A DNA stretch of 32,000 nt, taken from NCBI RefSeq assembly GCF_009848685.1, contig NZ_WXTX01000012.1, forward strand, positions 63,744 to 95,743, written 5' to 3'. The DNA comes from Andreprevotia sp. IGB-42 (GTDB lineage: Bacteria > Pseudomonadota > Gammaproteobacteria > Burkholderiales > Chitinibacteraceae). The notes beneath the pieces were generated by a model. The model had not been told where the DNA came from. It was given only the letters and a program-made list of their open reading frames with translations, and made no database searches. The translations under genes and the position numbers were made by a program. Below are positions 2,610-28,658 of this stretch, in pieces. Within the stretch, counting starts at the first letter, position 1; the number at the start of each line of letters is the position of its first letter.

Positions 2610-5600
2610 TCACAGATTGGTCGGGCATTTGAATTTGTCCAGCTCAGCCAGGCGGAACGGGCTCTGCACGGTAGAAGTGGTGACTTCGAACTTGACGTAA
2701 CGATCCTGGATCTTGAACGCAACACGTACGGATTCGGGCCGTGAGGTCGGCTCGACAGTGGCCTTGTCCATGGCATGCCACAACGCCCAGTCGCCATCGA
2801 AGGTCAGGCCGCCCACGTCATTGCCGTTCAGGCCATTCATGGTCAGGCGGATCACGCCGGTGCCCTTGGGGCCGGGCCAGGTCATTTGCTGCGGCACGAT
2901 GGCGCCGTGACGGTACTTGAGAATCTGGCCGTCGATATCGAGCACGGTTTGCGACAAGGCGGCATCCATTTCAACCGGCTTGATGGTAAAGCGCACCTGC
3001 GCCTGGTTGCCGCCCGGGAAGAACACATCGCGGATTACAGCTGCACGCTGAAAATCGGCCAGTGCGGCCGATTGGTTATTGTTGGCGCTGGCTGCACCCG
3101 GGCGAAAAGACCAGGGTTTGGTGGAAGTATCAACCTCTTGCGCCAGGCTTTTCTGAAAAAAAGCGTCAATGACCCCACCCGGGCTGAATACCCGGGCAAA
3201 GTCATCGCGGCGTACATCGCTGGGGCTGCTGCGGTTGAACGGATAGCGGTCTTTCACCACCTGCGTGCAGACATCCCCCACCGACGACTCCATCGCAGAC
3301 GACAGGTTCTGCTTGGCAACGCCCTGCACATGACCAACGCTGGTATCCGACAAACCCTGCAGCATGCTGCCCAGTGGTTCCGGCATGCGGGCAGCCTCGG
3401 ACTTCAGGCGTACCGGCAGATCGCTGGCGGGCAATGCGCCCTTGGATTGGGTCGCCGCATCTGCCGCAGACAGGTAGTTGTACAGATCACCCAGCAGCAC
3501 GATGGTGCTTTCAATCGGCGCCTGAGCATTCGGTGCCGGCGGCGTCACCATGCGATGGATGCTGGTGAAACGGCTATCCACAATGTACTCGAGGCGGGTT
3601 TCTGTCTCTGCATTGCGGGTCTGGCGTGGCGCCATCAGGCGTTGCAGCTTGTCGCGCTGTGCCTGCACCGCGCTGGCGGTGGCCATTTCAACCAGCTTGC
3701 CGGCGGTACCCTGGGTTTCAGCCAGTGCGACCAGCGACGTTTCATGCGTGATGCCGCGCAGCAGGTACAGCAGCGGCGAATCCGGACCGGACAACACGCG
3801 CGTCACATGCACGCTTTGCTCCAGGCTGGCTTGCGGGGCAATGCGGATATCGTTGACGAGGCGCTCCCATGCGGCTGCGTACTCTTCCAGATACAGGCGT
3901 TTGACTGCATCGCGCACGCGCTTTTCTTCCTGCTCGGCGTTGACGAGTGTTTTTACTCCGCCGGCAGCCACCGGCTCGTCACGCAGTACCCAGCCCTCCT
4001 CCTGGTACATGTCTTTCAGTACCGGGTCGATGGCCGGCAGGAAAGCCTTGGAGTAGCCATCTGCGGTGAACAGGCCCGGCATGCCCTGGCTGAGTGGCGC
4101 GCCGCTGGCGCGTACGAACACCACGGCAGCCGATGGACCTGCCGCTTCGGTAATGCGGAACTCGGCAATCTGGTTACCCACACCCATGCGCTTGAGGCGG
4201 CCATAGATGCGGTTGGGCAGTGGCGAGCTGGCAAGCTGCGCACGCACTTCCGTGGTCAATGCCTTGTCGAGCGGAATGGGGCTTTGCACCGCACCGCGGG
4301 ACAACAGCGTATCCAGGTGGATTTCCAACTGCTTGCGCTGTTCGATCGGAAAATCACGCGGCAGGTTGGCATCCCAATCGAGCATCACCCATGCCTTGAA
4401 TGCATTGGCATTGAAACGCTCGGCCTCGTGCAGCATCAGATAAACCTTGAGCGTTTCGTACTGCATGTCCGGATCGGACTTGAACGAACGCAGCGCTTGT
4501 TCGAGACGACCATTGATTTGCGGGATGAACGTATCCTGCAACAGGCGGTAATACGCGTTGGACGATGCGGCGGTCAGCTTCTCGCCCTGGTACATGCCCA
4601 TATTGCCCAGCCACAGGTCGGATTGCCCCGCTACCGGCGCAGGAATATCCCGCACTGCCTGCAAGGTGGGCAACAGATCGCCCAGCGACATTTCCTGGCC
4701 GACATTGATGCGCTCAACCTGGTCACGCACCTTGGGCACCCGTGCGGCTACCGCGTCCACGTAATCGTTGTTGTGGCGATAGCCAACGATCATCGAACCG
4801 GCTGCCAGCACCACCATCAGGCTCAGCAGCACATAACCGGCCGAGTGCAGCAGGGTACGCTTGCGGTGCCAGGACAGATTGCTGCCGGCCAAGTGTGCTT
4901 CGCCCAGCATCAGCTCACGGAACACCCGGGCCACGAAGAACGGACGGAACACCATCTGCTGCGCGCGCGCCAGCGTGAATGACTGGCGCAGGCCCAGCGG
5001 CGCAGCAACAGCTGGCAGCAGCGGATCCACCGGTGCACCTTCCTGCGCACCACTGGTGAAGTAAAAGCCACGGAACAGGATGCGCGACTGATACGGATTG
5101 GCGCTGAATGCCGCCTCGATGAAGTCGAGCAGCGGTTGTTGCAATGCCTGGAAGCTCTGCGGGAAGAAGCCCAGCAGGGTACGACGATCCAGATCGGTTT
5201 CGCGCTGCAGTTTTTGCAACAGCAGGCCCTGCAGGCGCTGGCTGAGTGCCGCCAGCTCGCCCTGCACGGTATTGAGGGCAACCGGGTCTTTGGCGGAAGC
5301 CGGGATGGGCAAGGTCACGCCCCACACCTGCTCGCGCTCTTCGGCACTCAGCGTTTCAAAGAATTCGCAGAAACCGGAAATCAGGTCGGCCTTGGTCACC
5401 ACCAGATACACCGGCACTTCAAGGCCCAGCACGTGGCGCAGTTCCTGCACGCGGTTGCGGATGGCATTGGCCTGGATTTCCAGCTCGGACTTGCGGCCAG
5501 CCAGCAATGTATCGGCACTGACCGAGACCATGATGCCGTTGATCGGCTGGCGCGGGCGGCTCTTTTTCAGCAGCAGCAGGAATTCTTCCCACTCGGCCGA

Positions 5601-14297: not shown

Positions 14298-15131
14298 ATG
14301 ACCACATTGACCCCCGCCCAGGAAAGCATCGACAAGCTGATCAAGCAAGGCGAGCTGGAGCAAGCCCTGAACCAGATTCAGGATGTGGTACGCAATGCAC
14401 CGTCGTATCCGCCGCACCGCGTGGTGCTGATACAACTGCTGCTGGCATTAGGCCAGTGGGATCGTGCCGAGAAACAACTGCAGCAACTGGAACAGACCGA
14501 CCGCGAGTACACGCGCTTTTGCCAGACTTACCTGGGTGCGCTGCGCGGCGAGCGCCAGCGTCTGGCCGTATTTCAGGGTGATGCCGCACCGCAAATGGGC
14601 GACGAGCCACCGCAATGGCTGGTGATGCAGATCAATGCATTCCTGATGGAGCGCACCAAGGCGCATCGCGCAGCGGTGACCGAACGCCAGCATGCCGCCG
14701 AATCAGCCCCGGCTGTCCGTGGCGAGGTGGATGGCACCCCATTTGAATGGCTGGCCGATGCCGACCCGCGACTGGGCCCGGTGGTCGAAGCCATGCTCGA
14801 CGGCCAATACCATTGGCTGCAGCAGAGCGACATCCGCCAGATCGACTTTTTTGCCACGCAAACTTTGATGGATCTGATCTGGCGCCAGGCCACCATCACC
14901 ACGCACGATGGCGTGGCCCACCCGGCACTCATTCCGGCCCGCTACCCGGAATCGCCCAATGCGGATGCGCGCTATGCACTGTGCCGCGCCACGGATTGGC
15001 TGAACGTGGGTAGTGACGGCTGGCAAGGCATCGGGCAGCGCGTACTGGGTACAGAAGAAGCAGAATACGGGCTGCTGGACATCAAGCTGATCCGCTTCGA
15101 GAACAACAAACAAACGGGGGACACTGAATAA
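14298..15131 (+). CDS. tagJ: T6SS accessory protein TagJ (ImpE/SciE family, TPR-like N-terminus)
   Basis: 277 aa. By eye it aligns along its length with my recollection of P. aeruginosa TagJ1: GQWDRAEKQL, DGTPFEWLADADPRLGPVVEAMLDGQYHWL, LIPARYPES. It follows hcp, the same position as in the H1-T6SS. Confidence 0.8.
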   Translation: MTTLTPAQESIDKLIKQGELEQALNQIQDVVRNAPSYPPHRVVLIQLLLALGQWDRAEKQLQQLEQTDREYTRFCQTYLGALRGERQRLAVFQGDAAPQMGDEPPQWLVMQINAFLMERTKAHRAAVTERQHAAESAPAVRGEVDGTPFEWLADADPRLGPVVEAMLDGQYHWLQQSDIRQIDFFATQTLMDLIWRQATITTHDGVAHPALIPARYPESPNADARYALCRATDWLNVGSDGWQGIGQRVLGTEEAEYGLLDIKLIRFENNKQTGDTE

Positions 15132-15553
15132 TGGCCGAAGCACTGAATGAAACCGCAACACGCATCATCGCTGCCTGCGAGCAGAACTGGGATGCCTGGA
15201 AAAACGATTGCAGCGGCTTTCTGAAAGCAGTCGGCGCAACCCTGGGCGTTGCGCTGCAAGGCAATGCCAACGCCATCGGCACTTACCTGGAAACCGCTGC
15301 CGATTGGCAAAACCTCGGCAGCGACCTCGCCACCGCACAACTGCGCGCCAACAACGGCATGTTCGTCGTGGGCGCACTCAATACCCGTGGTCATGGGCAC
15401 GTGGTGGTGGTGGTTGCCACCGATACGCCGCACCCCTACCCGGTGGCCTACTGGGGCACGTTTGGCGCCGCTGGCCGCAAGAATGCCACCATCAACTACA
15501 GCTGGCGTGCCAGCGATCTGGCCAACGTCAAGTTCTACGCCCGTCCGCTATGA
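15131..15553 (+). CDS. tae1: Tae1 (Tse1)-family T6SS peptidoglycan amidase effector (papain-like Cys/His)
   Basis: 140 aa. By eye it is co-linear with my recollection of P. aeruginosa Tse1 (PA1844). KNDCSGFLKAVGATLGVALQGNANAI matches KDNCSGFVQSVAAELGVPMPRGNANAM. GMFVVGALNTRGHGHVVVVV matches GFLVIAGLKGRTYGHVAVVI. YPVAYWGTFGAAG matches YPMCWCGSIAGAVG. The putative catalytic residues are C27 and H90. The start overlaps the tagJ stop (TAATG). Confidence 0.85.
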   Translation: MAEALNETATRIIAACEQNWDAWKNDCSGFLKAVGATLGVALQGNANAIGTYLETAADWQNLGSDLATAQLRANNGMFVVGALNTRGHGHVVVVVATDTPHPYPVAYWGTFGAAGRKNATINYSWRASDLANVKFYARPL

Positions 15554-15978
15554 GCCAGACTGCCACGCTGTTTGCCTTGCTGTTCGCCGCGTTCTGGTCA
15601 CCCTGGGCGGTTGCGGATTGCCAATTGCAGGAAGCCACGCCAGCCGTGCTGGCCGAACTGGCCGGCGGCGTCACGCTGGAAGGCAGTGACGACAATGCCG
15701 AAGCCCCGCTCTGGCTGGGCCCGGTGCGCACGCCTGCCTGCACGCTGGAGCCGGAATTGTTCCGCGGCCCGCTGGCCACCGCGCAGGGCCGCTACCTGTT
15801 CCTGATCCGCACCAGCGGCAGTGAACAGCAACTGGCGCAGTACGATCTGCAACAATGCAAGCTGATCTGGCAAAGCAAGCCGCAATTCGGCGCTGCAAGG
15901 CTACTGAAAGACGGCTACCAGATTGGCAAGAAGCGCTTACGCTTCGACCCGCAGTGCCGGCCACGCAAAACATCATGA
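15550..15978 (+). CDS. tai1: Tsi1/Tai1-like periplasmic immunity protein for the Tae1 amidase
   Basis: 142 aa from the ATG at 15550, which forms an ATGA overlap with the tae1 stop. It has a signal peptide MSQTATLFALLFAAFWSPWAVA. By eye it resembles remembered Tsi1 (PA1845): VADCQLQE vs AADCTFTQ, and QGRYLFLIRTSGSEQQLAQYDLQQCKLIW vs DGRRVLMHEFSGSSAELVSYDSATCKVVH. The listed ORF 15208..15978 is this frame extended backwards through tae1. Confidence 0.8.
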   Translation: MSQTATLFALLFAAFWSPWAVADCQLQEATPAVLAELAGGVTLEGSDDNAEAPLWLGPVRTPACTLEPELFRGPLATAQGRYLFLIRTSGSEQQLAQYDLQQCKLIWQSKPQFGAARLLKDGYQIGKKRLRFDPQCRPRKTS

Positions 15979-16221: not shown

Positions 16222-18156
16222 ATGTTTGATAATCGCTCAATCCGCCTGCACAGCCCGCTGCCCGATACCAGCCTGTTCTTCCGCAACCTGACTGGGGGTG
16301 AGGCGCTGAGTACGATCGGCCATTATCAACTGGCCGCCCTCTCGCTCAGCCCGGATCTGCCGCTGGATGATCTGGTAGGCCACCCGGTCACCATCGAGCT
16401 GGATCTGCCCAAAGGCGGACAGCGCTATATCCACCAGTATGTGGCCAGCATTGCGCTGATCGGCAAAGAGGGCCAGCACTACCGCTATGAAGCTGAATTG
16501 CGCCCATGGCTATGGTTTCTGACCCGCACTGCGGACTGGAAGATTTTCCAGAAGCAAAGCACGCTGGATATCGTCAAGAAGGTGTTTGCCGATCACGGCA
16601 TTGCCCGCTTTGAAGAACGCACCACGCAGAACTACCCGCCCCGCCGCTACTGTGTGCAGGCGGGCGAAACCGATGCCAACTTCGTGATGCGCCTGCTGGA
16701 GCAGGAAGGCATCTACTTCTTCTTTGAACACAAGGCAGACCAGCACGTGCTGGTACTGGCCGATGGCCTGCCCGCACACAAGCCGCGCCCGGGCTACGAG
16801 ACATTGCCGTTCGAGCACGGCGCCAACGACGGCGGCATGCGTATCGATGAAGAACACTTTGCCAACTGGCGTTACGGCAAGGTGGTGGAAAGCACGCGTT
16901 TCATCGTCAACGAATACGACTACTTCCGCCCTTCCGCCAACCTGCAGCTCAAGGCCACCGAAACCCGCGCGCACGGCCAGGCCCAGCACGATGTTTACCT
17001 GTGGCCCAGCGAGTATTACGCCAACGACCGCGGCCAGCACTTTGCCGATGTGCGGCTGGAAGAAAGCCAAGCCCGCCATGAAACAGCCAGCGGCAGCGGC
17101 CCGATTGAAGGCTTGGGCGCCGGCCAGCTGTTCACGCTGATCGACCACCCGCGCAATGATCAGAACCAGCAGTTCATGATCACCAGCGAACACTTGGTGC
17201 TGGAAGAGAACACCTACGAATCCACCGGCTCCGGCACCGGCCAGCGTGAGTGCCATATCACCGTGCTGCCGAGCAAGACCGCCTACCGCCCGCCGCGCGC
17301 CACGCCCAAGCCCATCATCCAGGGCACGCAAACGGCCAGCGTGGTCGGCCCTGCCGGTGAAGAAATCTATTGTGACGAAAAAGGCCGTGTGAAGATCCAG
17401 TTCCACTGGGATCGCTACGGCGCCAAGAACGAGCAATCCGGCTGCTGGGTACGCGTAGCCAGTGCCTGGGCCGGCCAGGGCTTTGGCGCCACCGCCATTC
17501 CGCGTATCGGCCAGGAAGTGCTGGTGTCCTTCATCGAAGGCGATGCAGACCGCCCCATCATCAGCGGCCGGGTTTACAACGAAGAACAGCCTACCCCGTT
17601 CGGCCACGCCAGCAGCAAGACCCAAAGCGGCCTGATCAGCCGTTCCAGCCCGGGTGGCGGGCCGGATAATGCCAACATGTTGCGGTTTGAAGACAAAACC
17701 GGCGCGGAGGAAGTCAAATTCCAGGCGGAAAAAGACATGAACGGCCTGGTCAAGAACAATCAGGGTTACGTGGTTGGCAATGATGAGCAACGCTACGTGG
17801 GCCATGATCAGGTACTGCGCGTACACAATGACCGGGTTGAAGTTGTCAAGAATGCGCTGACCATCATGGCCGGCGCAAGCCGCGCAGATGCGGTAGGCAC
17901 CACCTACCTCATCGAGGCCGGCGATGCGATCCGCCTGGTGTGCGGCAAGACCGTGCTGGAAATGAGTGCGGACGGCATGTTCAGCATCAGCTGCGAAGCC
18001 TTCAATATCACCGCCAAGCAAAGCGGTGAAATCAATACCCTGGGTGGCAAGCTTGATTTGAACAAGGATGGTGGCGCAGCCAGTACCGATTCCGGCCCGC
18101 ATGGCCAGAAAGGCACCATCGTGAATACCGTCAATCAAAACTTCCCAAGCAAGTAA
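16222..18156 (+). CDS. vgrG: T6SS spike protein VgrG (no C-terminal effector extension)
   Basis: 644 aa. It has gp27-like and gp5-like regions: RYEAELRPWLWFLTRT, QEGIYFFFEH, GRVKIQFHWDR, WVRVASAWAGQGFGATAIPRIGQEVLVSFIEGDADRPIISG. Confidence 0.95.
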   Translation: MFDNRSIRLHSPLPDTSLFFRNLTGGEALSTIGHYQLAALSLSPDLPLDDLVGHPVTIELDLPKGGQRYIHQYVASIALIGKEGQHYRYEAELRPWLWFLTRTADWKIFQKQSTLDIVKKVFADHGIARFEERTTQNYPPRRYCVQAGETDANFVMRLLEQEGIYFFFEHKADQHVLVLADGLPAHKPRPGYETLPFEHGANDGGMRIDEEHFANWRYGKVVESTRFIVNEYDYFRPSANLQLKATETRAHGQAQHDVYLWPSEYYANDRGQHFADVRLEESQARHETASGSGPIEGLGAGQLFTLIDHPRNDQNQQFMITSEHLVLEENTYESTGSGTGQRECHITVLPSKTAYRPPRATPKPIIQGTQTASVVGPAGEEIYCDEKGRVKIQFHWDRYGAKNEQSGCWVRVASAWAGQGFGATAIPRIGQEVLVSFIEGDADRPIISGRVYNEEQPTPFGHASSKTQSGLISRSSPGGGPDNANMLRFEDKTGAEEVKFQAEKDMNGLVKNNQGYVVGNDEQRYVGHDQVLRVHNDRVEVVKNALTIMAGASRADAVGTTYLIEAGDAIRLVCGKTVLEMSADGMFSISCEAFNITAKQSGEINTLGGKLDLNKDGGAASTDSGPHGQKGTIVNTVNQNFPSK

Positions 18157-18168
18157 AGGCCAGCAATC

Positions 18169-18612
18169 GTGAATTACCTTATCAATGAAGCGCTTTTCAA
18201 GTTGCCGGACCCTACGCCAACTGATTACACCATCAACATGATCAAGCTGAACCAGCTTGGGGCCAACCTTGCCATTGGCCGGGGCCAGATGCAGCCGGAT
18301 GAAACCAGCCTGGAAGAGAACGTGAAGCGCCAGCTGGAAGCATTGGACCGCCAAGTGAGCAGCTTGCGGATTCAAAACCAGAGCGCCTGCCAGATTGGCG
18401 AAAATCTGCAATACCCGGCATTTGAAATCCAATCCCGCTTTGTGCGGGGCAACGAGATCATTTACCAGCACCAGGTCATCCTGCAGATTCCGGATACCGA
18501 CAAAACGCTGGTATTTACGTATTCAAAGCCCACCGCGATGAATGAACAGGACGCACAAGCCTGGCAGGCCATCAAAAGCAGCATTCGCCTTGCGCAAGCC
18601 AACCCACAATAA
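18169..18612 (+). CDS. eagR: Eag-family (DUF1795/DcrB-like) T6SS effector chaperone
   Basis: 147 aa with a GTG start and AAAGG 8 nt upstream. It has a DUF1795-type opening (NYLINEALFKLPDPTPTDYTINM) and size. It sits between vgrG and a prePAAR Rhs gene, the canonical Eag context. Confidence 0.8.
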   Translation: MNYLINEALFKLPDPTPTDYTINMIKLNQLGANLAIGRGQMQPDETSLEENVKRQLEALDRQVSSLRIQNQSACQIGENLQYPAFEIQSRFVRGNEIIYQHQVILQIPDTDKTLVFTYSKPTAMNEQDAQAWQAIKSSIRLAQANPQ

Positions 18613-18623
18613 AGCCCCCCGAC

Positions 18624-19469
18624 ATGTCTGATCTCTGTGCCGCACGCCTGGGTGACCCCATTGTTCACACCTCCCTCCTAGGCGACATTCTGAAAGTCGC
18701 GCTGGATATTGCCGCATACGCATTGATTACAGCCGCCGCCGTTGCCGCGGTTGCAGCTGCCGCAGCGGCAACCGGGTTGACCTTGGGCGCAGGTGCGCCC
18801 CTGTTGATTGGCGTGGTTGTCGGGATCGGCATGGGGGTCTCTGGTGGCTCCGGCTTACTGGATAAAGCCACCACCGGGATAGCCAATTTCATCTGCCCCC
18901 CGCAGGAAGACGGCAAGATCCTGACCGGCTCTACCAATACCTTCACCAACAGCAAGCCTGCTGCCCGTGCAGCCGGCAAGGTGGGGGGTGGCCCTGCGTC
19001 GCCACCGCCCGCACCCAGCCTGGGTGATGAGGTAGTCGGGTTTCTGTCGGACATGTGGCGGCCCACGATTGCGGTAGCGGCACCGGGCTCATCCCCTGTG
19101 CCACTGGATACCGTGCTGTGTGGCAAACATCCGCCCGCCCCACCGGCTTTTCTGGCACAAGGCTCGGAATCCGTTTTCATCAACAGCCAGCCCGCCACAC
19201 GCAAAGGTGACAAAACCACCTGCGGTGCAGATGTGGGCACGGCATCCAAGAACGTATTCATTGGTGGCCAGACCATTACCGTGCGTGACGTAAAAAGCGG
19301 TGCCAACCCCTGGGTGGGTGCCATTGCTACGGTAGCCCTGCTGCTGACTGGCAAGGTCAAAGGCAGCTTCTGCACCAAGCTACTCTGTATGGGTGGCAGC
19401 TTTGTGGTCGGTGTTGCCACTGCGTATGTCACGCAGCGCGCCGTTACCGCAATCAACAACTTCCGTCAG
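18624..19469 (+). other. Rhs N-terminal loading region: prePAAR motif, TMD1 (aa ~25-75), split PAAR domain (aa ~95-215), TMD2 (aa ~228-270)
   Basis: Read from the translation. Two TM regions plus an Rhs cage plus an upstream Eag gene match the class II prePAAR effector architecture described for EagR-dependent effectors. Confidence 0.75.
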
Positions 19470-22400
19470 GGTAGCCCGGTACACGTGCTGAGCGGTGCCA
19501 AGGTACTCGATGCGGAAGACGATCTCGACTTTTCACTACCGGGCCGCATGCCCATTACCTGGCAGCGGGTATATAACAGCCGCAACCTGTCCTCCACCGG
19601 TTTGTTTGGTCAGGGCTGGTCTTGCGATTACGCCCAACAGATCAGTACCGACCTCCGCCCGGATGGCGTGCATTACCATCTGCAACTGGATGACGGCCAG
19701 GTGCTCAGTGTGCCGCCCATGGCCGCGGGCGAGTCTTATCACGTTGTCGATCTGGGGCTGCGCGTAGGCCGTACCGAAGGCGATCACCTGATCGTCGAGA
19801 TCATTGATGCCGGCATCTATTATCTGTTTGGCAAGCTTGACCATCTTGCCGCAGTGCAAAACCAGCCATTGCGTGGCATTGAAGACCGCCACGGCAACCG
19901 CCTGACCTTGCGCCACGACGAACATGGCCGCTTGTACCAGATGATCAACTGCAGTGGCGTGCTGGTTGAACTGAGTTATGACCCGCAGCACCCGCAGCGC
20001 GTAGCAAAGATGGAACGCCTGTATCTCAATCAGGCGCCAGAGCGCGAAACGCTGGTTGAATACGCTTACGATGCACGCGGCCAGCTCATTGAAGTGCGCG
20101 ACAGCGCGGGCCAGAGCGTGCGCCGTTTTGCCTATGACAACAATAGTTTGATGGTGGAACAAGCCTTGCGCACCGGCCTGATATGCCATTACGAGTGGCA
20201 GCAGGTGCAGGATGCGCAGGGCGTTTTTCCAAGGGTGGTGCGCCACACCAACAGCCTTGGTCAGCTCTGGCAATTTGCCTATGACGGCGAGCAAGGCATC
20301 ACCCGCTGCACCGATCAACTGGGCCGCACGCAAACGTGGACCTGGGATGCGCTGTATCAGGTGCTCAGCCACACCGATGCACTGGGCCGCACTACCCTGT
20401 GCGAATGGACCGAACAACGGATGCCCGCAGCCATCGAAGGGCCGGACGGCGGCCGTGATACAGCCAGCTATGACGATGCCGGCAATGTGGTGGCGCTGAC
20501 TGACCCACTGGGCCGCAGCTATACCTTCAGTTGGCACCCGCAGTGGCTGCAGGTGGTCAACATGGTCGAGCCAGGTGGCCAGGCCTGGCAGTTCGAGTAT
20601 GACAACGAAGGCCAGCGTGTACGCACTACGGACCCGCTTGGCCATGTCACGCTGGAGAACTACGACGATCATGGTCAACTGATCAAGATCACCGACCCGC
20701 GCGGCGGCCAGAACCTGCTGGTGTGGAACGGCATGGGGCAGTTGATCCAGGAAACCGATTGCTCCGGGAAATCCAGCTATTTCTATTACGATGTGCATGG
20801 CCTGCCCATCCGCACCGTCAACGCCATCGGCAACGAAACCAGCTTCAACTGGGATGCAGTGGGCCAGCTGAAGCAACTGCAACTGGCCGATGGCAGCCAG
20901 CAGCAATTTCACTGGTCCACGGAAGGATGGCTGGCAGCGGAGACCGATGCCCTCGGCCAGATCACCCGCTACGAGCGTGACCCGCTGGGCCGGCTGGCCC
21001 GCAAAACCGACCCGCTACACGGCACGCTGGCATTTGAATACGACCGCGCCGGCAACCTGGCGCAACTGCGTAACCAGAACCAGCAAAGCTACGGCTTCAA
21101 TTACGACGCTGCGGACCAATGCACCGCTGAAATCTCGCTGGATGGCCGCCGCCGTGAGTATGGCCTGGATATCAATGGCAATACGGTGGAAGTGCGTGAA
21201 GCCGCAGGCAGCGTGCACCAGATCGTTACCGAGCTACAGCGCGATATCATGGGCCGGCTGGTTGCCAAGATCACCGCGGAAACCGTCACCCGCTACAGCT
21301 GGGATGCCAATGACCAGGTCATCCAGGTAGCACGCTGGGCCAGGGATGATACGGCGGAACAGCAGCAAGGTGCTTTCATCGACCAGATCGACTGGGCCTA
21401 TGATCCACTGGGCAGCCTGCTAAGTGAAACCACCAAGCGGCTGCGCGCCTCCCCCTACCCCGGGCAGCCCGCGCAGGAAGACGTGCAGACGCTGCAGCAC
21501 GAATACGATGTGCTGGGTAACCGTATTGCCACCACCCTGCCCGATGGCCGCCGGCTGCAATGGCTGAGCTATGGTAGCGGCCATGTGCACCAGATCATGC
21601 TGGATGGCGAGATCATGTGCGATATGGATCGTGATGATCTGCACCGCGAAATTGCCCGCAGCCAGGGTCTTCTGAATTCTGCATTTGAATATGACGCGGT
21701 CGGCCGCCAGACCCGCCACTGGGCATTCAAGCCTGGCCAGCAATGGCCATGGCCGCAAGCGCGGGAGGAAATCCGCCAGCGCAGCCTGCACCCGCGTGTG
21801 GGCGATGCCCTGGCCAAGCACTTTGAATATGGCCCGACTGGCGAGCTGACCCGCCGGCAAGACACCATCAATGGTGAAGCACTGTTCAGCTACGACGCCA
21901 TCGGCCGCCTGCGCGAAGCGCGCTCGTCAGTGGTGAATGAACACTTCGCCTACGATGCCGCCTCCAACATGCTGGACCCGGTACGCACCGGCCAGGCGCA
22001 AGCCGCACTGCTGCACAACCGTATCAGCGTGCACGAAGACAAACGCTTTGCCTACGATGCGCACGGCAGGCTGGCCGAGAAGCGCATCGGCGCCCATACC
22101 ATCCAGACCTTCCGCTACAACTGCGAACACCAGTTGATTGAAGTGGCCATCCTCAAACATGGTCAGCAAAGCAGCGTGCGCTTTGAATACGATGCGCTGG
22201 GCAGGCGTACTGCCAAGCACAGCGGCAACAGCAGCACCCGCTTTGGCTGGGATGGCATGCAGATGATCCTGGAGGACAGCCACAGCAGCCACACCCTGTA
22301 CCTGTATGAACCAGGCAGCTATACCCCGCTGGCCCGCGTGGACCGCCGCCCGGATGCCGCCAATGACGATGCAACCGTTTACTGGTTCCACGCCAACCCC

Positions 22401-23105
22401 ACCGGCGCGCCGGAAGAACTGACCGACCGCAATGGCCGCGTAGTGTGGCAGGCACGTTACCAAAGCTGGGGTAACCTGGCGCTGGAGCAACAGCCAGCGG
22501 ATGAATACGCCGTCACCAAGCTACAGAACGACCTGCGCTACCCCGGCCAGTATCATGACCGGGAAACGGGGCTGCACTACAATACCTTCCGCTACTATGA
22601 TCCGGACATCGGCCGCTTTACCACAGAAGACCCGATCGGCTTGAATGGTGGTTTGAACCTGTATCAGTATGGGCCCAATCCGTTTGCATGGATTGATCCG
22701 TGGGGATGGGTATGTAAAAGTGCTTTTAGTGGTAATCGAGGTAGAAATAAGGCCATGCATGATTTGAAGAGAAATGGCTTTAAGCTTGTTGCTGAAGAAG
22801 TAACAATGAAGGTCAACGGCAAACGAATTCGCGCTGACTTTGTCATGCAAGACCAACAAGGAAAATATCACGTCTTCGAAGTAAAGCATGGCTCCGGTGG
22901 CCTCACGAAAAATCAAAAGGCTGCAGGCGTTTTTGATATGAAATCACCTGCCAATACTACAAAAAATCTTGGGGGAGGAACAATTAAACCTTCTCAAGGA
23001 AAACAAGGTGTATTCAAAGTCGCCACACGCGGCCAACCAGGCAAGGAACTAGGTGGATTTGGCGCTCAACACGACGCCACATTCAACCTACTAATTTACA
23101 AATAG
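18624..23105 (+). CDS. rhs: prePAAR/PAAR-Rhs T6SS effector with a variable C-terminal toxin domain
   Basis: 1493 aa. It has a prePAAR motif AARLGDPIVH (aa 6-15), two hydrophobic TM regions flanking a PAAR domain, the Rhs N-terminal plug motif (PVHVLSGAKVLDAEDDLDF), and many YD repeats (YDxxGxL). The Rhs core ends in DPIGLNGGLNLYQYGPNPFAWIDPWGW. Confidence 0.95.
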   Translation: MSDLCAARLGDPIVHTSLLGDILKVALDIAAYALITAAAVAAVAAAAAATGLTLGAGAPLLIGVVVGIGMGVSGGSGLLDKATTGIANFICPPQEDGKILTGSTNTFTNSKPAARAAGKVGGGPASPPPAPSLGDEVVGFLSDMWRPTIAVAAPGSSPVPLDTVLCGKHPPAPPAFLAQGSESVFINSQPATRKGDKTTCGADVGTASKNVFIGGQTITVRDVKSGANPWVGAIATVALLLTGKVKGSFCTKLLCMGGSFVVGVATAYVTQRAVTAINNFRQGSPVHVLSGAKVLDAEDDLDFSLPGRMPITWQRVYNSRNLSSTGLFGQGWSCDYAQQISTDLRPDGVHYHLQLDDGQVLSVPPMAAGESYHVVDLGLRVGRTEGDHLIVEIIDAGIYYLFGKLDHLAAVQNQPLRGIEDRHGNRLTLRHDEHGRLYQMINCSGVLVELSYDPQHPQRVAKMERLYLNQAPERETLVEYAYDARGQLIEVRDSAGQSVRRFAYDNNSLMVEQALRTGLICHYEWQQVQDAQGVFPRVVRHTNSLGQLWQFAYDGEQGITRCTDQLGRTQTWTWDALYQVLSHTDALGRTTLCEWTEQRMPAAIEGPDGGRDTASYDDAGNVVALTDPLGRSYTFSWHPQWLQVVNMVEPGGQAWQFEYDNEGQRVRTTDPLGHVTLENYDDHGQLIKITDPRGGQNLLVWNGMGQLIQETDCSGKSSYFYYDVHGLPIRTVNAIGNETSFNWDAVGQLKQLQLADGSQQQFHWSTEGWLAAETDALGQITRYERDPLGRLARKTDPLHGTLAFEYDRAGNLAQLRNQNQQSYGFNYDAADQCTAEISLDGRRREYGLDINGNTVEVREAAGSVHQIVTELQRDIMGRLVAKITAETVTRYSWDANDQVIQVARWARDDTAEQQQGAFIDQIDWAYDPLGSLLSETTKRLRASPYPGQPAQEDVQTLQHEYDVLGNRIATTLPDGRRLQWLSYGSGHVHQIMLDGEIMCDMDRDDLHREIARSQGLLNSAFEYDAVGRQTRHWAFKPGQQWPWPQAREEIRQRSLHPRVGDALAKHFEYGPTGELTRRQDTINGEALFSYDAIGRLREARSSVVNEHFAYDAASNMLDPVRTGQAQAALLHNRISVHEDKRFAYDAHGRLAEKRIGAHTIQTFRYNCEHQLIEVAILKHGQQSSVRFEYDALGRRTAKHSGNSSTRFGWDGMQMILEDSHSSHTLYLYEPGSYTPLARVDRRPDAANDDATVYWFHANPTGAPEELTDRNGRVVWQARYQSWGNLALEQQPADEYAVTKLQNDLRYPGQYHDRETGLHYNTFRYYDPDIGRFTTEDPIGLNGGLNLYQYGPNPFAWIDPWGWVCKSAFSGNRGRNKAMHDLKRNGFKLVAEEVTMKVNGKRIRADFVMQDQQGKYHVFEVKHGSGGLTKNQKAAGVFDMKSPANTTKNLGGGTIKPSQGKQGVFKVATRGQPGKELGGFGAQHDATFNLLIYK
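22710..23105 (+). other. Rhs C-terminal toxin domain (aa 1363-1493), unassigned family, with a PD-(D/E)xK-like residue pattern
   Basis: It begins immediately after DPWGW. GC drops abruptly at this exact point. The pattern is GFKLVAEE...RADFVMQD...YHVFEVKHG...TKNQ, with candidate residues D1405, E1419 and K1421. Confidence 0.55.
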
Positions 23106-23114
23106 AGAATAGGC

Positions 23115-23720
23115 ATGTTTGATTTGAAAGAATTTGAGGCAACTTTTCTTGAAACCCTAAAAGAAAGAAAAGAAAGTGGGACATCTTTATCTAAAAACAC
23201 AATAAAGTATAAAAAAGGCAGCGAGGTGATTGCTGAAATATATATACAACATTTGAGAAATGCAGATGGCTACTATGCTGGAGCACGTGCTTACAGCAGC
23301 GAAATTGAGAATTTTTGTAAAGAGGCTGCGCCGCCCTACAAGAACAATTTATCTAACCCCGCTTTTTTTTCTGCCACATCCCAAAATGAGCCATATAAAA
23401 GGTTTGGCGATGATACAACCGGAGTTGTCAGGCTAAACAAAAATCAAAGCACAAAAGAAAATGCCGAGCGAATTTTTCAAAAATTAAATGAATTCTACAT
23501 AAGAAGAATTAAAAATTGCCTAACCCTCGACACAGCTTTGATTAAAGAAGTCATTGATAGCCCAAACGATTTTTCATACCCGTTCTTGATAGTTGTTTTT
23601 GCAGCAAAGCAAAGCAAACTACCTTTTGACAGCGAGGCAGTCCAAGAAGCTATATGTAAAAAAGGCATGCTTGGGAAAAAAGATTTTGATTTTGCATTTG
23701 CTAAAAAATATTTAGCCTAA
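23115..23720 (+). CDS. Putative cognate immunity protein of the Rhs C-terminal toxin (hypothetical, cytoplasmic)
   Basis: 201 aa. The start is 9 nt after the rhs stop. There is no signal peptide or TM. It is Lys/Glu/Phe-rich and very AT-rich (two sampled 60-nt lines: 27 % and 40 % GC). I recognised no family signature. The immunity role is inferred only from position and shared composition with the toxin domain. Confidence 0.6.
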   Translation: MFDLKEFEATFLETLKERKESGTSLSKNTIKYKKGSEVIAEIYIQHLRNADGYYAGARAYSSEIENFCKEAAPPYKNNLSNPAFFSATSQNEPYKRFGDDTTGVVRLNKNQSTKENAERIFQKLNEFYIRRIKNCLTLDTALIKEVIDSPNDFSYPFLIVVFAAKQSKLPFDSEAVQEAICKKGMLGKKDFDFAFAKKYLA

Positions 23721-23922
23721 TTAATCGGACACCAACGGCCTCGGCAAGTCAGAAACGTTGTCAAATAGAAATTGACGGAGCCCTTGGCAGAAAATCAGTA
23801 ATCGATCAAACGATTACATAGAACTCCAAAGAATTCCAAAAAATGCTAAGGAACATCTGCAAAAATCAGCACCCGGCCGACTGATGTGATTGAATCAGGC
23901 ATCCCACTCAAGCGCCAGCACA

Positions 23923-24065
23923 ATGAAACAGCAAAGCGTCGCCGAACACGCCTTCACCAAGCAGCCCAAGGCCACCAAGCGTCAGCAGTTTCTGGCAGGG
24001 ATTGACGAGGTCGTCCCTTGGGAGCGGCTGTGCAGCGTGATCGAACCGTTCTACCCCACGGGTAC
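23923..24065 (+). pseudogene. IS5-family transposase N-terminal fragment (DUF772-type), truncated remnant
   Basis: MKQQSVAEHAFTKQPKATKRQQFLAGIDEVVPWERLCSVIEPFYPTG matches the conserved IS5/InsH-type opening (MKQ.SFA....K.K.T.RE.FL..M..VVPW..L...IEP.YPK). Similarity stops at ~24065, and the rest of ORF 23890..24135 is unrelated. No DDE catalytic region is present. Confidence 0.6.
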
Positions 24066-24160
24066 TTCCAGAAACCCCTTTTTCCATAAAACACCGCTTA
24101 TATCAATCAATAGGTTACATGCGCACGGCGGTTGAAAATCGAGGTTTTTGGAAGTTCCCA

Positions 24161-25564
24161 TTAATCCAGCGTGTTATCCACAACATCCCCACCCAGCGCC
24201 TGATACAGCTTCATCAAGTCATTCAGTTGCCGATAGCGGTTTTCGGCCAGCGTGATTTCGATGGCGCGGCGCGCTTGCTGTTGGTCCAGCCAATCTTTCA
24301 CGCCGGTCTTGCCGGCGCGATAGCGCACTTCTGCCAGGGTTTCGCTGCGGCGGGCCAGATCAAACGCGCGCTGCAGTGCCTCCCCTTCTTGCAAATCATG
24401 GCTGCGGGCGGATAACGCGTTTTCCACATCGGCCAGCGCCTTGTAGAGCGCCTGGCGGAATTGCACCACGGCAAGCTGGTAATCGGCTTGCGATACCTTG
24501 ATGGTGAGCTGGGTGGTGTTCCATTGCAGGAAGGGCAGCGTCAGCCCTGCCCCCAGCGTGCCGATGGGGTTGCTCAGTACATTGCCGAGATTGGTGCTGA
24601 CACTGCCCACGCTGCCGGTCAACGTGAATGCCGGGTAGAAGCTGGCGCGAGTGGCATCCACATTGGCCATGCTGGCGCGCAAGCGCCATTCTGCTGCTTG
24701 CAGATCCGGCCGGCGGGCCAGTACATCGGCGGGGATGCCTTCCGGAACCGTGGGCAATGGCGTTTGCGGCAGCGCTGCCAGCTCCAGCTCCCGCTGCTGC
24801 GGTGCCTGGTCGAAAAGGATGGCCAGTGCGTTACGTGCTTCTTCGCGCTGCTGTTGCAGGTTGACCAGGGTGGCTTGCTGGGTGGCCACACTTTGCGCGG
24901 CTTGCACTTCATCCAGCCCGGCCACCGCGCCGGCCTTGTGCTGCACGTGTACCAGCGCCAGTGTCTTTTCGGTATAGGCAAGGCTGGCCTCGGCCGAGGC
25001 AATGCGCTGGTTCAGGTAGGCGATTTGCCAGTACAGCTGCGCGGTGGTGCCGATCAGCGCCAGCGCGGTATTGCGGCGATCCAGCTCGGTGGCGTTGGCT
25101 TCCCAGGCGGCGGCGTCGCGCTGGCGCGCCAGCTTGCCCCACAGGTCGATTTCATAGCTGAGCGATGCGGTGGCGTTGTAGCTACGCACGCTGCGGCCAC
25201 CCTCTTTCAGATCTTGCTGCACGTTGCCCCCCGCCCCCACGGTTACGCTGGGGGTGAGGTTGGTATCAGTCAGCCCGGCTTGCAGCCGGGCGCGCTGCAC
25301 CCTGATGGTGGCCGCGGCCAGATCGTTGTTGCTGCGCAGTGCCTTGTCGATCAGCGCATCCAGTTGCGGATCACCAAAGCGCTGCCACCAGCGTTCGCCA
25401 CTGGCAACCTGCGGCCCGGTGATGGCCGTGCCTTGCCATTGCGCCGGCATCGCTACCGCCGGGCGCTGGTAATCACTTTGCAGTGCGCTGCCACAGCCGG
25501 CCAGCAACAGTGCCAATGCCAGCGTGGGTAGCCTTGTATACATTCTTGCTCGCATGGGGGTCAT
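24161..25564 (-). CDS. NodT/OprM-family outer-membrane efflux lipoprotein (outer membrane factor)
   Basis: The ATG at 25564 forms an ATGA overlap with the macB stop and gives 467 aa. The product starts [26 protein letters not shown] (lipobox LAGC) followed by [12 protein letters not shown], typical of NodT-family OMFs. It shows TolC-like repeat structure. The upstream 69 codons of ORF 24161..25771 overlap macB and are rejected. Confidence 0.9.
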
Positions 25565-27510
25565 TCGCGTGCCAGTGCCTCGATCGGATCCAGCCGGGCG
25601 GCGTTGCGGGCCGGCAGGTAGCCAAAGCCAATGCCGATCAGCGTGGAGCACACGCAGGCCACCACGATGGAGGCGATGGAAAACTGCATGGCAATCACCT
25701 GCACGAAGTAAGAGAACACCACGCCGATGCCCAGCGAGAGCACCACGCCGATCAGCCCGCCAATCAGGCAAACCAGCGCGGCCTCGATCAGAAATTGCTG
25801 CATGATGTCGCCCTGGCGCGCGCCCACCGCCATGCGGATGCCGATCTCGCGCGTGCGTTCAGTGACGGATACCAGCATGATGTTCATCACGCCGATGCCG
25901 CCCACCGCCAGCGAAATCAGCGCGATGGAGGAAATCAGCAAGGCCAGCGTAGCAGTGGTTTGTTCCACGGTCTTGAGTATGCTGTCGCTGCTGAAGGTGA
26001 AGAAATCCTTGCTGCCATGCCGTACGGTCAGCAGCCGGGTCAGGCTTTGCTCGGCCTGGTCATTGGGCAGGCCGTCGCGCACCCGCGCGGTGATGCTGCT
26101 CAGGTGGCTTTGGCCAAGTAGCCGCCCCATTGCGGTGGTATAGGGTATCCACACATTCAGATTGGCATCGTTACCGAAGCCACCGCTTTTCTTGGCCGCC
26201 ACGGCGATGATGCGGGCCGGCACCGTGCCCAGCAGGATGATCTCGCCCACCGGGTTACCGCCGTGCGGAAACAGCTTATTGCGGGTGTTGTCGTCGATGA
26301 CCACCACCTGTGCCTGACGGCGTACGTCTTCCTCACGGAATGCGGCCCCTTGGGCCATGGTCACGCCCTTGACGCGGAAAAACTGCTCCCCCACCCCGGC
26401 CACTTGCGCGGCGGCCTCGATATTGCGGTAGCGCAACGTACCACTACCATTCAACTGCGGCGTGGCGCTATCCACATAGACTTGTGCCTGCAGCGCGGTA
26501 ACGTCCGCAGCCACCAGCGTGTGGATGCTGCCAGCCTTGCTGTCGCCCCAATCCTTGCCGGGGAAAATCTCGATGGTATTGGTGCCCATGGCGCTGATAT
26601 CGCTGATCACCTTCTGCCGGGCGCCCTGCCCCAGCGCCACCACCGAGACCACCGATGCAATGCCGATAATGATGCCCAGCATGGTCAGCAAGGTGCGCAT
26701 GCGGTTGGACACCATGGCAATCCACGCCATCTTGAATGCCTCGCCAAAGCGGCTGGCATTGAAGCGCCTGGCGCGGGCCGGGGCGGCAGGCTTCACCAGC
26801 ACCGTGCGCTCGCCATCGCCGGCAACGGGGTTGGCACGGTCTGCAACGATTTCGCCATCATGGATTTCGATGATGCGCCCGGCGTTGCTGGCCACCTGCA
26901 TGTCGTGGGTAACGATGATCACCGTGTGCCCGGCGCGATGCAGCTCGCGCAAGATGTTCATCACTTCTTCGCCACTATGGCTGTCCAGCGCACCGGTGGG
27001 CTCGTCTGCCAGGATGACGTCGCCGCCGTTCATCAACGCGCGGGCGATACTCACGCGCTGTTGCTGGCCGCCAGATAGCTGGCTGGGCAGGTGCAGCGTA
27101 CGGCCTGCCAGGCCCAGCCTGGTCAGCAATTGCCGTGCGCGCTCGCGACGGTGCGTTTTGTCCACACTGGCATAGACGGCGGGGATTTCGACATTCTGCT
27201 CCGCACTCAGGTGCGGCATCAGGTGGTAACGCTGGAAAATGAAGCCGAAATGTTCGCGGCGCAGCGTGGCGAGTTCATCCACGCTCAGCTCACCGGTTTC
27301 ACGCCCGGCCACGCGGTAGCTGCCGCTGGATGGCTTGTCCAGGCAGCCCAATACATTCATCAGCGTTGATTTTCCGGAACCAGACTGCCCGACAATGGCC
27401 ACCATTTCGCCCGCGTGAATGCTGAGGTTGATGTTCTTCAACACCACCACTTCTTCATCCCCGGCCGGGAAGCGGCGTTCCAGCTGCATCAACTCAAGCA
27501 AGGCCGCCAT
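25561..27510 (-). CDS. macB: MacB-type ABC transporter (fused ATPase + FtsX-like permease)
   Basis: 649 aa. It has Walker [13 protein letters not shown] signature [15 protein letters not shown], and Walker [12 protein letters not shown]. The C-terminal permease has a large periplasmic loop and 4 TM helices. Confidence 0.85.
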
Positions 27511-27512
27511 GC

Positions 27513-28658
27513 TTACGGCCCCGGCGGCGGCATCATGCCGGCAACCGGCTCACCGATGATCACCTGTTCGCCACCAGCCAGCCCGGCCAGTACCTGTGCA
27601 TTGACGTTGTTGTTCAGCCCCGCCTTCACCTGGCGGGTTTCCACCTTGCCATTCTTCAGCACCCGAACTTCATAGCGCCCGTCCTTGCCGCGCAAGCCCA
27701 ATGCTGCTGCCGGTACGGTTAGCGCCTGTTTGGCCTCACCCTGCACGATGGACACCTGCGCCGTCATCGATGTGCGCAGCACGTGATTGGGGTTGGCCAC
27801 GTCGAACAGGCCGTTGTAATAGACGGCGCTGCTGGAGGAACTGCTGCTGTTGATGGATTCCGGCGCGGGTTCGATGGCACGCAGCCTGGCGTAGAAGCGC
27901 CGCTCCGGCACGCCCAGGATGGTGAAGTACACCGTCTGGCCCGCCTTCACACGCACCACGTCGGCCTCGGAGATTTGTGCCTTGATGGTCATGGTATCGA
28001 GGTTGGCCATGATCAGGATGGTGGGCGCGGATTGGGCCGAAACCACCGTCTGCCCTTCCTTGGTGACTACCGAGATGATCTCGCCATCCATGGGCGCCAT
28101 GATGCGGGTGTAGCCCAGATTGGTCTGCGCGGTATCCACCTGCACGCGCGATTGGGCGATCTGTGCATCCACTGCAGCCAGTTCGGCGCGGGTGGAATCG
28201 AGCTGCGCCTGTGCGCTTTCCAGATCGGCACGCGGGCTGGCATCGCTGGCGATCATCTGCTGCTGGCGCTTGAGTGCCAGATCATACTGGCGCAGCAGCG
28301 CTTCCTTGGCACGGCGCTGTGCCTCGACGTTCTGCAGGCCAGCCTGTGCGTTGCGCAGATCATTCTGCTGGATGGCAGGGTCGATCTCGGCCAGCAGCTG
28401 GCCCTTCTTCACACTATCGCCCAACTTCACCTTCAGCGCTTTCAGCTGCCCGTTCACCTGTGCACCGACGCTGACCTGGGTAATGGGCTCCAGCGTGCCG
28501 CTGGCCAATACCGCTTCTTCGATATCCATGCGCGCCACCGGCGCAGTCAGGTATTGGGGGGGTGGCGCAGGCCGCTTGAAATACCATACCAGCAAAGCCA
28601 CCACGATCAGTACCAGCACAGCCAGCACGATGCGGGTACCGCGTTTTTTCAGTTTCAT
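27513..28658 (-). CDS. macA: MacA-type periplasmic adaptor (HlyD/membrane fusion protein family)
   Basis: 381 aa. It has an N-terminal TM anchor ([18 protein letters not shown]), a coiled-coil hairpin region, and barrel domains. The stop is 2 nt before the macB start. Confidence 0.85.

Follow-up and report, generated by a model that had tools for sequence, protein, structure and literature searches.

A probable T6SS effector-immunity pair of the RhsA-CT/RhsI type with a predicted PD-(D/E)xK nuclease tip in Andreprevotia

The effector locus analyzed here has its closest described counterpart in the RhsA/RhsI pair of P. protegens, which has been shown to kill in a T6SS- and EagR1-dependent manner, to protect its producer, and to be toxic in E. 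coli unless RhsI is supplied, and whose toxin is called a predicted DNase (PMC7773334, PMC8765631). No enzymatic assay for the RhsA-CT clade was found in the literature searched. The DNase prediction is said to have originated with Tang et al. 2018. Among clades whose activity has been measured, the closest is IdrD-CT/RdnE, a demonstrated DNase whose catalytic D, E and K residues are essential (PMC12483513), and which, as judged by sequence, matches the toxin described below over the catalytic core only.

The window, i.e., the whole 32,000-nt stretch of Andreprevotia sp. IGB-42 DNA that was analyzed, carries a vgrG gene for a T6SS spike (16222..18156, + strand, 644 aa; Pfam Phage_GPD E=4e-87, Gp5_trimer_C E=3e-25 and Phage_base_V E=5e-14) and an eagR-type chaperone gene (18169..18612, + strand, 147 aa; DcrB/DUF1795, Pfam DcrB E=1e-18), which together lie directly 5′ of an rhs gene (18624..23105, + strand). 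In P. protegens the EagR1 gene is also located between vgrG and rhs (PMC7773334). The 1493-aa product of rhs is a class I prePAAR-TMD-PAAR-Rhs effector (RHS_repeat E=8e-71, DUF6531, RHS core, PAAR E=3e-12), whose prePAAR motif reads AARLGDPIVH (aa 6-15) and whose single hydrophobic region covers aa 17-79. All the features of this class were found: the AARxxDxxxH motif, one N-terminal TMD region, a PAAR domain, a Rhs cage and, next to rhs, an Eag (DUF1795) gene. The existence of a dedicated delivery set upstream of the toxin, as proposed in a preliminary description of this DNA, was confirmed for VgrG, Eag, prePAAR and PAAR by Pfam and motif searches. The rhs gene closes a T6SS gene cluster, eight core genes of which were identified.

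The Rhs cage ends with a C-terminal aspartyl autoprotease block (22629..22709, + strand) that runs from DPIGL, beginning at aa 1336 (D1336), to DPWGW, beginning at aa 1358 (D1358), and the PFAWIDPWGW stretch ends at aa 1362. The PxxxxDPxG[WLF] motif (consensus PxxxxDPxGW) and both catalytic aspartates are present, and they aligned with D1324, D1346 and W1350 of RhsA, a protein in which cleavage at the aligned block was experimentally shown (PMC8765631). On this alignment autocleavage is predicted to occur after W1362, and the released tip would comprise aa 1363-1493 (131 aa; positions 22710-23102, then the stop codon). This tip is basic, with a pI of 10.2. The two motifs, the limits of the tip and the residues singled out beforehand (E1391, E1392, D1405, E1419, K1421 and Q1431) were all located where the preliminary description had put them.

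When the profile of the tip was compared with the P. protegens RhsA structure (PDB 7q97_A), the match (E=2e-69) spanned RhsA residues 1257-1426, that is, the whole toxin domain, and BLASTP of the tip against this domain gave 59% identity over 130 of the 131 tip residues (E=7e-51). The gene that follows rhsA was examined on a contig (L041) whose Rhs product is 100% identical to RhsA over its last 170 residues, and where a 208-aa ORF (L041:3529-4155) lies 16 nt 3′; this ORF, found directly after rhsA, is taken to be RhsI. The 201-aa protein encoded downstream of the tip matched it by BLASTP (E=2e-16), and the 208-aa ORF product matched the profile of the immunity family by hhalign (99.7%, E=3.5e-26). 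Judged by these alignments, the tip and the 201-aa ORF are a new member of the known RhsA-CT/RhsI effector-immunity family, and not an undescribed pair. The pair had earlier been presented as a candidate undescribed one, a claim made to depend on there being no confident match of both proteins to an already characterised family; such a match was found, and by its own measure the claim of novelty therefore fails. That the tip belongs to a T6SS Rhs effector and is followed by its immunity gene was supported. The accompanying view that the family is unassigned stands insofar as Pfam and NCBIfam recognise neither protein, but not insofar as both match RhsA/RhsI.

Database searches retrieved 37 homologues of the tip (E 1e-54 to 2.5e-10), which on these E-values are far beyond chance matches. 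Residues D1405, E1419, K1421 and Q1431 (D43, E57, K59 and Q69 in tip numbering; codons at 22836-22838, 22878-22880, 22884-22886 and 22914-22916, + strand) were invariant across 36 homologous sequences. They fall within aa 1363-1434 (22710..22925, + strand), a region supported as the putative catalytic core by the invariant residues, AlphaFold2 (AF2), Foldseek and hhalign, with alpha1, beta1-3 and alpha2 of the PD-(D/E)xK fold. The AF2 model of the tip (mean pLDDT 88.8) contained an alpha-beta-beta-beta-alpha-beta core, with pLDDT values of 89-98 over the catalytic core, and placed D43, E57 and K59 on the strands formed by residues 38-47 and 53-60 (beta-2 and beta-3). Residues E1391 and E1392, formerly assigned to a helix, were both put by the model on strand beta-1. 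The remainder of the tip, here called region 2 (aa 1435-1493 plus the stop codon; 22926..23105, + strand), had been regarded as a Gly/Lys-rich tail. A Gly-rich segment is indeed present, but it is not loose: residues N82, G88-90, T106, G115, G118, A123, F125, L128 and Y130 (tip numbering) are conserved, and the segment was modeled within the fold (pLDDT 71-95), where two terminal strands (residues 98-104 and 120-130) appear to complete the sheet. The region also aligns with RhsA over its full length.

In a Foldseek search of the PDB, the best neighbours of the tip were nearly all PD-(D/E)xK nucleases, with a probability of up to 0.99, weak E-values (best 5.6e-3) and a coverage of just 60-80 residues of the tip; among them were AdnA, Exo5, Cas4, XisH, NucS and restriction enzymes. 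No Pfam family (Tox-REase, VRR-Nuc and Ntox included) or NCBIfam family reached its threshold with the tip or with any of the 36 toxin members. The best Pfam score for the tip was with NERD (14.3 bits vs a cutoff of 22.1), and the weak Pfam matches seen among the 36 members were with NERD in 13, SduA_C in 12 and UPF0102 in 5. The restriction-endonuclease-like core of the model, its neighbours and the invariant D/ExK/Q residues agree with the PD-(D/E)xK layout read earlier from the letters alone, and we predict that the tip is a nuclease of this type.

The nature of the substrate is a separate matter. Effectors of the PD-(D/E)xK superfamily degrade DNA or RNA (PMC12483513), and the substrate of the RhsA-CT clade is a prediction only, so that a toxin of this same RhsA-CT/RhsI family might cut RNA (tRNA, rRNA or mRNA) and not DNA. 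The tip family was aligned by hhalign with the IdrD/RdnE clade (95.8%, E=8e-9) over about 31 core columns only, and nothing in region 2 aligned with RdnE; since this conserved Gly-rich region has no counterpart in the DNase RdnE, substrate recognition could differ. Against cleavage of RNA, the nearest characterised clade is that same DNase, the best structural neighbours (AdnA, Exo5, Cas4, NucS and restriction enzymes) act on DNA, and RhsA is named a predicted DNase in the literature. We consider an RNA-cleaving toxin unlikely, and DNA is the substrate that we favour.

Other assignments of the tip were tried and rejected. Identity with RdnE/RdnI, suggested by the same residue spacing and overlapping host taxa, was set aside on the 31 aligned core columns and on the greater length of RdnI by description. 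The Aave_0499 clade gave a weak hhalign match of merely 52.6%; EHEC RhsF/RhsFI, judged by its description, has residues (D104/D127/T129) that do not fit the invariant ExK of the tip, and the papers on the Salmonella Tennessee Rhs and Xanthomonas Rhs tips treat different toxin domains. The Pfam models of other T6SS PD-(D/E)xK clades had no match at E<=1 in any of the 36 toxin members. The portion of the supplement text of Hespanhol et al. 2022 that was available makes no mention of P. protegens RhsA or Andreprevotia.

The putative RhsI-family immunity gene (23115..23720, + strand, 201 aa) starts 9 nt past the TAG stop codon of rhs on the same strand, at the distance originally noted, which suggests that toxin and immunity protein are co-expressed. 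As foreseen, its product has no export signal: a hydrophobic N-terminus is absent, the top 19-residue Kyte-Doolittle mean being 1.09 (residues 146-164), as expected for a cytoplasmic protein. The protein is not acidic (pI 8.8), which makes a role in mimicking DNA improbable. Neither it nor any of 31 family members matched a Pfam or NCBIfam family (Imm families included) at threshold, and its structure, predicted from a 13-sequence alignment, matched no solved structure in the PDB. With no recognised domain or structural neighbour, the 201-aa ORF might be seen as an unrelated passenger or accessory gene, protection being provided from elsewhere. This is extremely unlikely, given the homology to the presumed RhsI, which relieves the toxicity of RhsA (PMC8765631), and the 9-nt gap. 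In addition, a homologue of about 200-224 aa was found directly after the toxin in 36 of the 40 genome loci, in Pseudomonadota and Bacteroidota, and identities among the immunity proteins rise and fall with those among the toxins (Spearman 0.83, Mantel p about 5e-4). The family shares the conserved motifs PPY, PxxYxYP and K..D. We therefore retain the 201-aa ORF as the immunity gene of the pair.

The tip and the ORF form a low-GC cassette: between about 22660 and 23880 the GC content is 0.30-0.49, a drop from about 0.61. At its 3′ edge lies an N-terminal fragment (about 66 aa; 23917..24114, + strand) of an IS5-family transposase, which was detected by tblastn against plasmids, where the matched features carry the annotation "IS5 family transposase" (42-48% identity, E about 1e-8 to 1e-9), and which had no match in Pfam. 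A search of plasmids with the cassette proteins gave no match, and the cassette DNA matched E. coli genomes only at the conserved end of the Rhs core. The foreign composition, the broken transposase and the finding of the exact immunity protein in a single genome and one sequencing-run contig could indicate a horizontally acquired remnant in disuse as a T6SS weapon, either silent or unsecreted, or serving as an internal TA-like module transcribed inside rhs, as reported for EHEC and Salmonella Rhs tips (PMC7618764); shortened 99-aa "MKVNG..." copies are also carried by orphan arrays elsewhere. However, the 1493-aa ORF is intact, with its prePAAR motif, TMD, PAAR domain, cage, both autoprotease aspartates and all the catalytic residues, and it comes right after vgrG and eagR, closing the T6SS cluster with its eight identified core genes. 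A promoter/terminator scan of 22300-24300 gave nothing above shuffled background, and promoter-like sites were fewer than in shuffled sequence (1 vs 3.0), which argues against this reading. A disused remnant is accordingly very improbable, and an operative effector-immunity pair is the preferred reading.

We consider it quite probable that the locus encodes a T6SS effector-immunity pair of the RhsA-CT/RhsI family, in which the tip is a PD-(D/E)xK nuclease acting most likely on DNA, and the 201-aa protein protects the producer. In the proposed mechanism, the prePAAR-PAAR domain would load the Rhs protein onto the adjacent VgrG, while the neighbouring Eag chaperone would shield its N-terminal transmembrane segment. 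The autoprotease (D1336/D1358) would cut after W1362, and the 131-aa tip would as a result be free within the Rhs cage. Once delivered to a neighbouring cell, the tip may fold as a small nuclease in which D1405, E1419 and K1421 coordinate a divalent metal and cut phosphodiester bonds, most likely in DNA, and the Gly-rich second half, by completing the sheet, is probably required for activity. In the producer cell, the 201-aa protein would remain in the cytoplasm, bind the toxin and block it.

With this locus, the RhsA-CT/RhsI family reaches Andreprevotia (Chitinibacteraceae), a lineage of chitin degraders, which is of modest importance. The locus also suggests that the toxin-immunity cassette, low in GC, is transferred as one unit from one Rhs cage to another, the cages being far more divergent than the tip. 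It also points to a curation gap: no Pfam or NCBIfam model exists for the toxin clade, for the immunity family, or for the wider set of tips on Rhs proteins in which the R.R.D...E[VI]K...T.NQ core recurs. The wider set amounts to 639 representative clusters at E<=1e-3; of its long representatives, all six that were checked carry RHS repeats, and three of these also Tc-toxin-type domains. A profile for these families would convert many Rhs tips of "unknown function" into predicted nucleases. Rather than being a plain non-specific DNase, the RhsA-CT clade, with its conserved Gly-rich beta region 2, could have a substrate or specificity of its own (RNA or structure-specific DNA) and be neutralised through an undescribed binding mode by its RhsI-type proteins of ~205 aa, which have no relative in sequence or structure among solved proteins; it would then be one part of a large uncurated PD-(D/E)xK toxin superfamily. 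We regard this combination as rather improbable.

Among known systems, Aave_0499 (RhsB), PoNe, TseV (VRR-Nuc) and Tox-REase resemble the tip in their superfamily and as polymorphic toxin tips encoded beside immunity genes (PMC9635880). IdrD-CT/RdnE with RdnI, from Proteus mirabilis, is likewise a T6SS tip carried on a Rhs protein and has a similar size (138 aa vs 131 aa here; PMC12483513, PMC9635880), with a PD-(D/E)xK core, the same D(+14)E(+2)K spacing, a helix carrying L[ST]xxQ and a second region after the core, which in RdnE is needed for activity. It differs in having GxGxD where the tip family has RxRAD, and in its immunity protein, RdnI by its published description having 305 aa and conserved Y197/H221/P244/E246, whereas the RhsI type has ~205 aa with PPY and PxxYxYP. 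In comparison with RhsA/RhsI of Pf-5 (PFL_6096 and the downstream gene), the host class is different, Andreprevotia being placed here in the Betaproteobacteria, RhsA has a 6-residue insertion ahead of the RxRAD strand, and the immunity proteins share 25% identity, so that cross-protection is unlikely. The Rhs cages are 41% identical, vs 59% for the toxin domains, and the tip therefore looks as if it had been swapped in as a cassette. Nevertheless, the two loci share the gene order vgrG, eagR, prePAAR-PAAR-Rhs and immunity, the autocleavage motif, a toxin that aligns from end to end with the same D/ExK/Q residues and a Gly-rich second half, and homologous immunity proteins of near-equal length (201 aa here vs 208 aa).

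The Rhs protein of Andreprevotia sp. IGB-42 (Betaproteobacteria, Chitinibacteraceae; Neisseriales) is encoded by a 1493-aa ORF (18624-23105, + strand). It carries the prePAAR motif AARLGDPIVH at aa 6-15, a single hydrophobic region at aa 17-79 and, in Pfam, PAAR, DUF6531, 12 RHS repeats and the RHS core. The sequence DPIGL starts at aa 1336 and DPWGW spans aa 1358-1362; since the latter ends at aa 1362, the tip corresponds to aa 1363-1493 (22710-23102, + strand), the boundaries proposed in the preliminary description. The delivery set noticed there was also found: besides the prePAAR-PAAR region, vgrG (16222-18156) and an Eag chaperone gene (DcrB/DUF1795, 18169-18612) lie directly upstream of rhs. 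Farther upstream are the T6SS core genes tssM, tssL, tssK, tssJ, tssA, tssB, tssC and hcp, together with the accessory gene tagJ. As described, the 201-aa ORF (23115-23720) starts 9 nt past the TAG of rhs, and no signal-like N-terminus was seen in its product. The observation as such is thus confirmed. Entries IGB42_03392 to IGB42_03401 matched six of the window proteins exactly, among them Hcp, TssB, Eag, Rhs and the 201-aa protein. The GenBank name of the Rhs protein, 'putative deoxyribonuclease RhsC' (KAF0812123.1), is presumably a generic pipeline label for Rhs proteins and appears not to be evidence on the activity of the tip; its RefSeq name is just 'RHS repeat-associated core domain-containing protein'.

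A scan with Pfam models, the check suggested at the outset, gave nothing above threshold for either protein, and NCBIfam gave none for the tip; for the tip, only sub-threshold hints to NERD, SduA_C and UPF0102, which are PD-(D/E)xK families, were obtained. A database search collected 37 tip homologues, most of which are C-terminal fragments of Rhs proteins, from Pseudomonas, Erwinia, E. coli, Salmonella, Photorhabdus, Comamonas, Lampropedia and Tenacibaculum. In the alignment of 36 family sequences, D43, E57, K59 and Q69 (D1405, E1419, K1421 and Q1431) are invariant, as are R39, R41 and several residues of the Gly-rich second half. The AlphaFold2 model of the tip was confident (pLDDT 88.8, pTM 0.85), with a helix at 3-21, strands at 25-35, 38-47 and 53-60, a helix at 67-72, and strands at 98-104 and 120-130. 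This order is that of the alpha-beta-beta-beta-alpha-beta core in restriction-endonuclease-like enzymes; D43 falls on beta-2, E57 and K59 on beta-3 and Q69 on alpha-2. Its best Foldseek matches in the PDB were nearly all PD-(D/E)xK nucleases (AdnA, Exo5, Cas4, XisH, Card1, NucS, SfsA, AvaII and DrdV), with probabilities up to 0.99, weak E-values (5.6e-3 or higher) and a coverage of only 60-80 residues. The invariant residues, the predicted topology and these neighbours all argue for the PD-(D/E)xK nuclease proposed from sequence alone. Two details of that proposal had to be revised: E1391 and E1392, assigned to a helix, are placed on beta-1 in the model, and the Gly/Lys-rich 'tail' is conserved and structured and belongs to the domain.

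When the PDB was searched with the tip-family profile, the 'Rhs family protein' 7q97_A was matched across the whole toxin domain (E=2e-69). This entry is RhsA of Pseudomonas protegens Pf-5 (PMC8765631), whose tip is 59% identical to the window tip over 130 of its 131 residues (E=7e-51). To obtain RhsI, the RhsA C-terminus was used as query against metagenome contigs, and contig Ga0207709_10000063 was 100% identical to it across all 170 residues. A 208-aa ORF lies 16 nt downstream, and we took it as rhsI by its position, which is that of the immunity gene in Fig 1A of PMC8765631. The window 201-aa protein is 25% identical to its product (E=2e-16), and the immunity-family profile matched this product with 99.7% probability (E=3.5e-26). 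Judged by these homologies, the window pair is a member of the RhsA-CT/RhsI family, so that the claim of an undescribed pair fails. The effector-immunity pairing holds, from this homology and the conserved linkage, and the earlier interpretation is therefore partly supported. RhsA kills recipients lacking rhsA-rhsI in a T6SS- and EagR1-dependent manner and is toxic in E. coli, where RhsI reverses the toxicity (PMC7773334, PMC8765631); it cleaves itself after W1350, for which D1324 and D1346 are needed (PMC8765631).

The linkage was surveyed in 40 genome loci encoding a toxin homologue. In 37 of them, the toxin stop is followed within a few bases by the start of an ORF with 190 aa or more (201-224 aa), and 36 of these ORFs were detected with the window protein alone (phmmer, E 4e-48 to 2e-5). 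Identities to the window proteins are 13-39% for the immunity proteins versus 44-77% for the toxins; PPY (aa 73-75), G103, P108, Y128, PxxYxYP (aa 150-156), K183 and D192 are conserved in the immunity family. Across 35 pairs, toxin and immunity pairwise identities correlate strongly (Spearman 0.83, Pearson 0.88, Mantel p ~5e-4), as would be expected if the two partners were passed on together and diverged in step. The immunity family had no sequence match in Pfam, NCBIfam or the PDB. Its AlphaFold2 model (pLDDT 85.4), for which a shallow alignment of 13 sequences was used, combines an alpha/beta N-terminal part with a helical bundle at the C-terminus, and no Foldseek match to a PDB structure was better than E=0.26.

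The region ~22660-23880, which coincides with the tip and the 201-aa ORF, has a GC content of 0.30-0.49 versus ~0.61 around it. The nearest relatives of the window toxin are found in Pseudomonas (73-77% identity), and those of the immunity protein in Pseudomonas and Xanthomonas (36-39%). Compared with RhsA, the cage is 41% identical and the tip 59%, so that conservation is higher in the tip than in its carrier. Nearest relatives in Pseudomonas and Xanthomonas despite a Neisseriales host, low GC and a less conserved cage fit a cassette exchange in which recombination took place at the DPxGW boundary. A ~66-aa N-terminal fragment of an IS5-family transposase (23917-24114, + strand; 42-48% identity to annotated plasmid IS5 transposases, E ~1e-9), which had no match in a Pfam scan, borders the low-GC cassette at its 3′ edge, just ahead of the return of GC to host level. 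The T6SS island is directly followed, on the opposite strand, by a tripartite efflux operon (24161-28658) for an outer-membrane efflux protein (24161-25771), a MacB-type ABC transporter (25561-27510) and an HlyD-family membrane-fusion protein (27513-28658). A second effector-immunity candidate is located between tagJ (ImpE) and vgrG: a 140-aa homologue of the P. aeruginosa peptidoglycan amidase Tse1 (15131-15553, + strand; PDB 4eob, 3vpi and others, E ~1e-13), and an ORF overlapping its stop by 4 nt (15550-15978, + strand), whose product has an N-terminus resembling a signal peptide and matches Pfam Tsi1 only weakly (E=0.13). Two candidate ORFs adjoining tssM (520-1731, 403 aa, and 1862-2593, 243 aa, both + strand) had no Pfam match at E<=1e-5.

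With the architecture and homologies of the window pair established, its cleavage, delivery, substrate and binding can be modelled on RhsA and on RdnE of Proteus mirabilis. The prePAAR-PAAR region would mount the Rhs protein on VgrG, and the Eag chaperone would cover the TMD; the Rhs protein would be cut after W1362 and delivered, and the tip would then refold into a metal-dependent PD-(D/E)xK nuclease, with DNA as the most likely target. In the producer, the 201-aa protein would bind and neutralise the tip. The RhsA toxin is 'predicted to function as a DNase' in the RhsA/RhsI literature, which gives Tang et al. 2018 as the source, and one review names it a DNase effector; our literature search found no enzymatic assay of it. 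The main rival, a tip acting on an RNA substrate, is considered improbable. A decayed or TA-like role of the cassette is also unlikely, because each functional element is intact. The remaining interest of the nuclease pair lies in a RhsA-CT/RhsI clade without curated models and an immunity protein without a structural relative in the PDB by Foldseek.

When 1.84 billion representatives were searched exhaustively with the tip profile, 18 clusters passed E<=1e-30, 49 passed E<=1e-10 and 639 passed E<=1e-3, the last being the much larger uncurated set of tips with the R.R.D...E[VI]K.G...T.NQ core. Fifteen of the weaker matches share the core G.R.R.D...E[VI]K.G...[LF]T.NQ, and most terminate with [RH]Y. 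Among ten weaker matches examined, all 6 long proteins have RHS repeats, 3 of them with Tc-toxin-type domains (SpvB, FG-GAP, TcdB), and none of the ten C-terminal domains had a Pfam match above threshold. Two Comamonas testosteroni chromosomes (4001-4931 in the retrieved loci) carry a 99-aa truncated copy of the toxin that starts at the conserved Met of 'TMKVNG', without helix 1 and most of strand beta-1, and is followed by a 202/204-aa ORF within an orphan toxin/immunity array (RHS fragments, LHH, Tox-URI2 with Imm44, and Ntox30). The same truncated form accounts for several database 'proteins' 94-105 aa long.

Among the published T6SS PD-(D/E)xK clades, IdrD-CT/RdnE of P. mirabilis is a demonstrated DNase that needs D39, E53 and K55 as well as its 'region 2' (PMC12483513), and its D(+14)E(+2)K spacing is identical to that of the window tip. 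With the deposited clade alignments of Hespanhol et al. 2022, hhalign related the tip family to the IdrD clade with 95.8% probability (E=8e-9) over only 31 core columns, and to the Aave_0499 clade with 52.6%. Compared by its published description, RdnI has 305 aa and conserved residues unlike those of the window immunity family. Given the short aligned core and this different partner, the window pair is, from these comparisons, probably only a cousin of RdnE/RdnI and not a member of that family.
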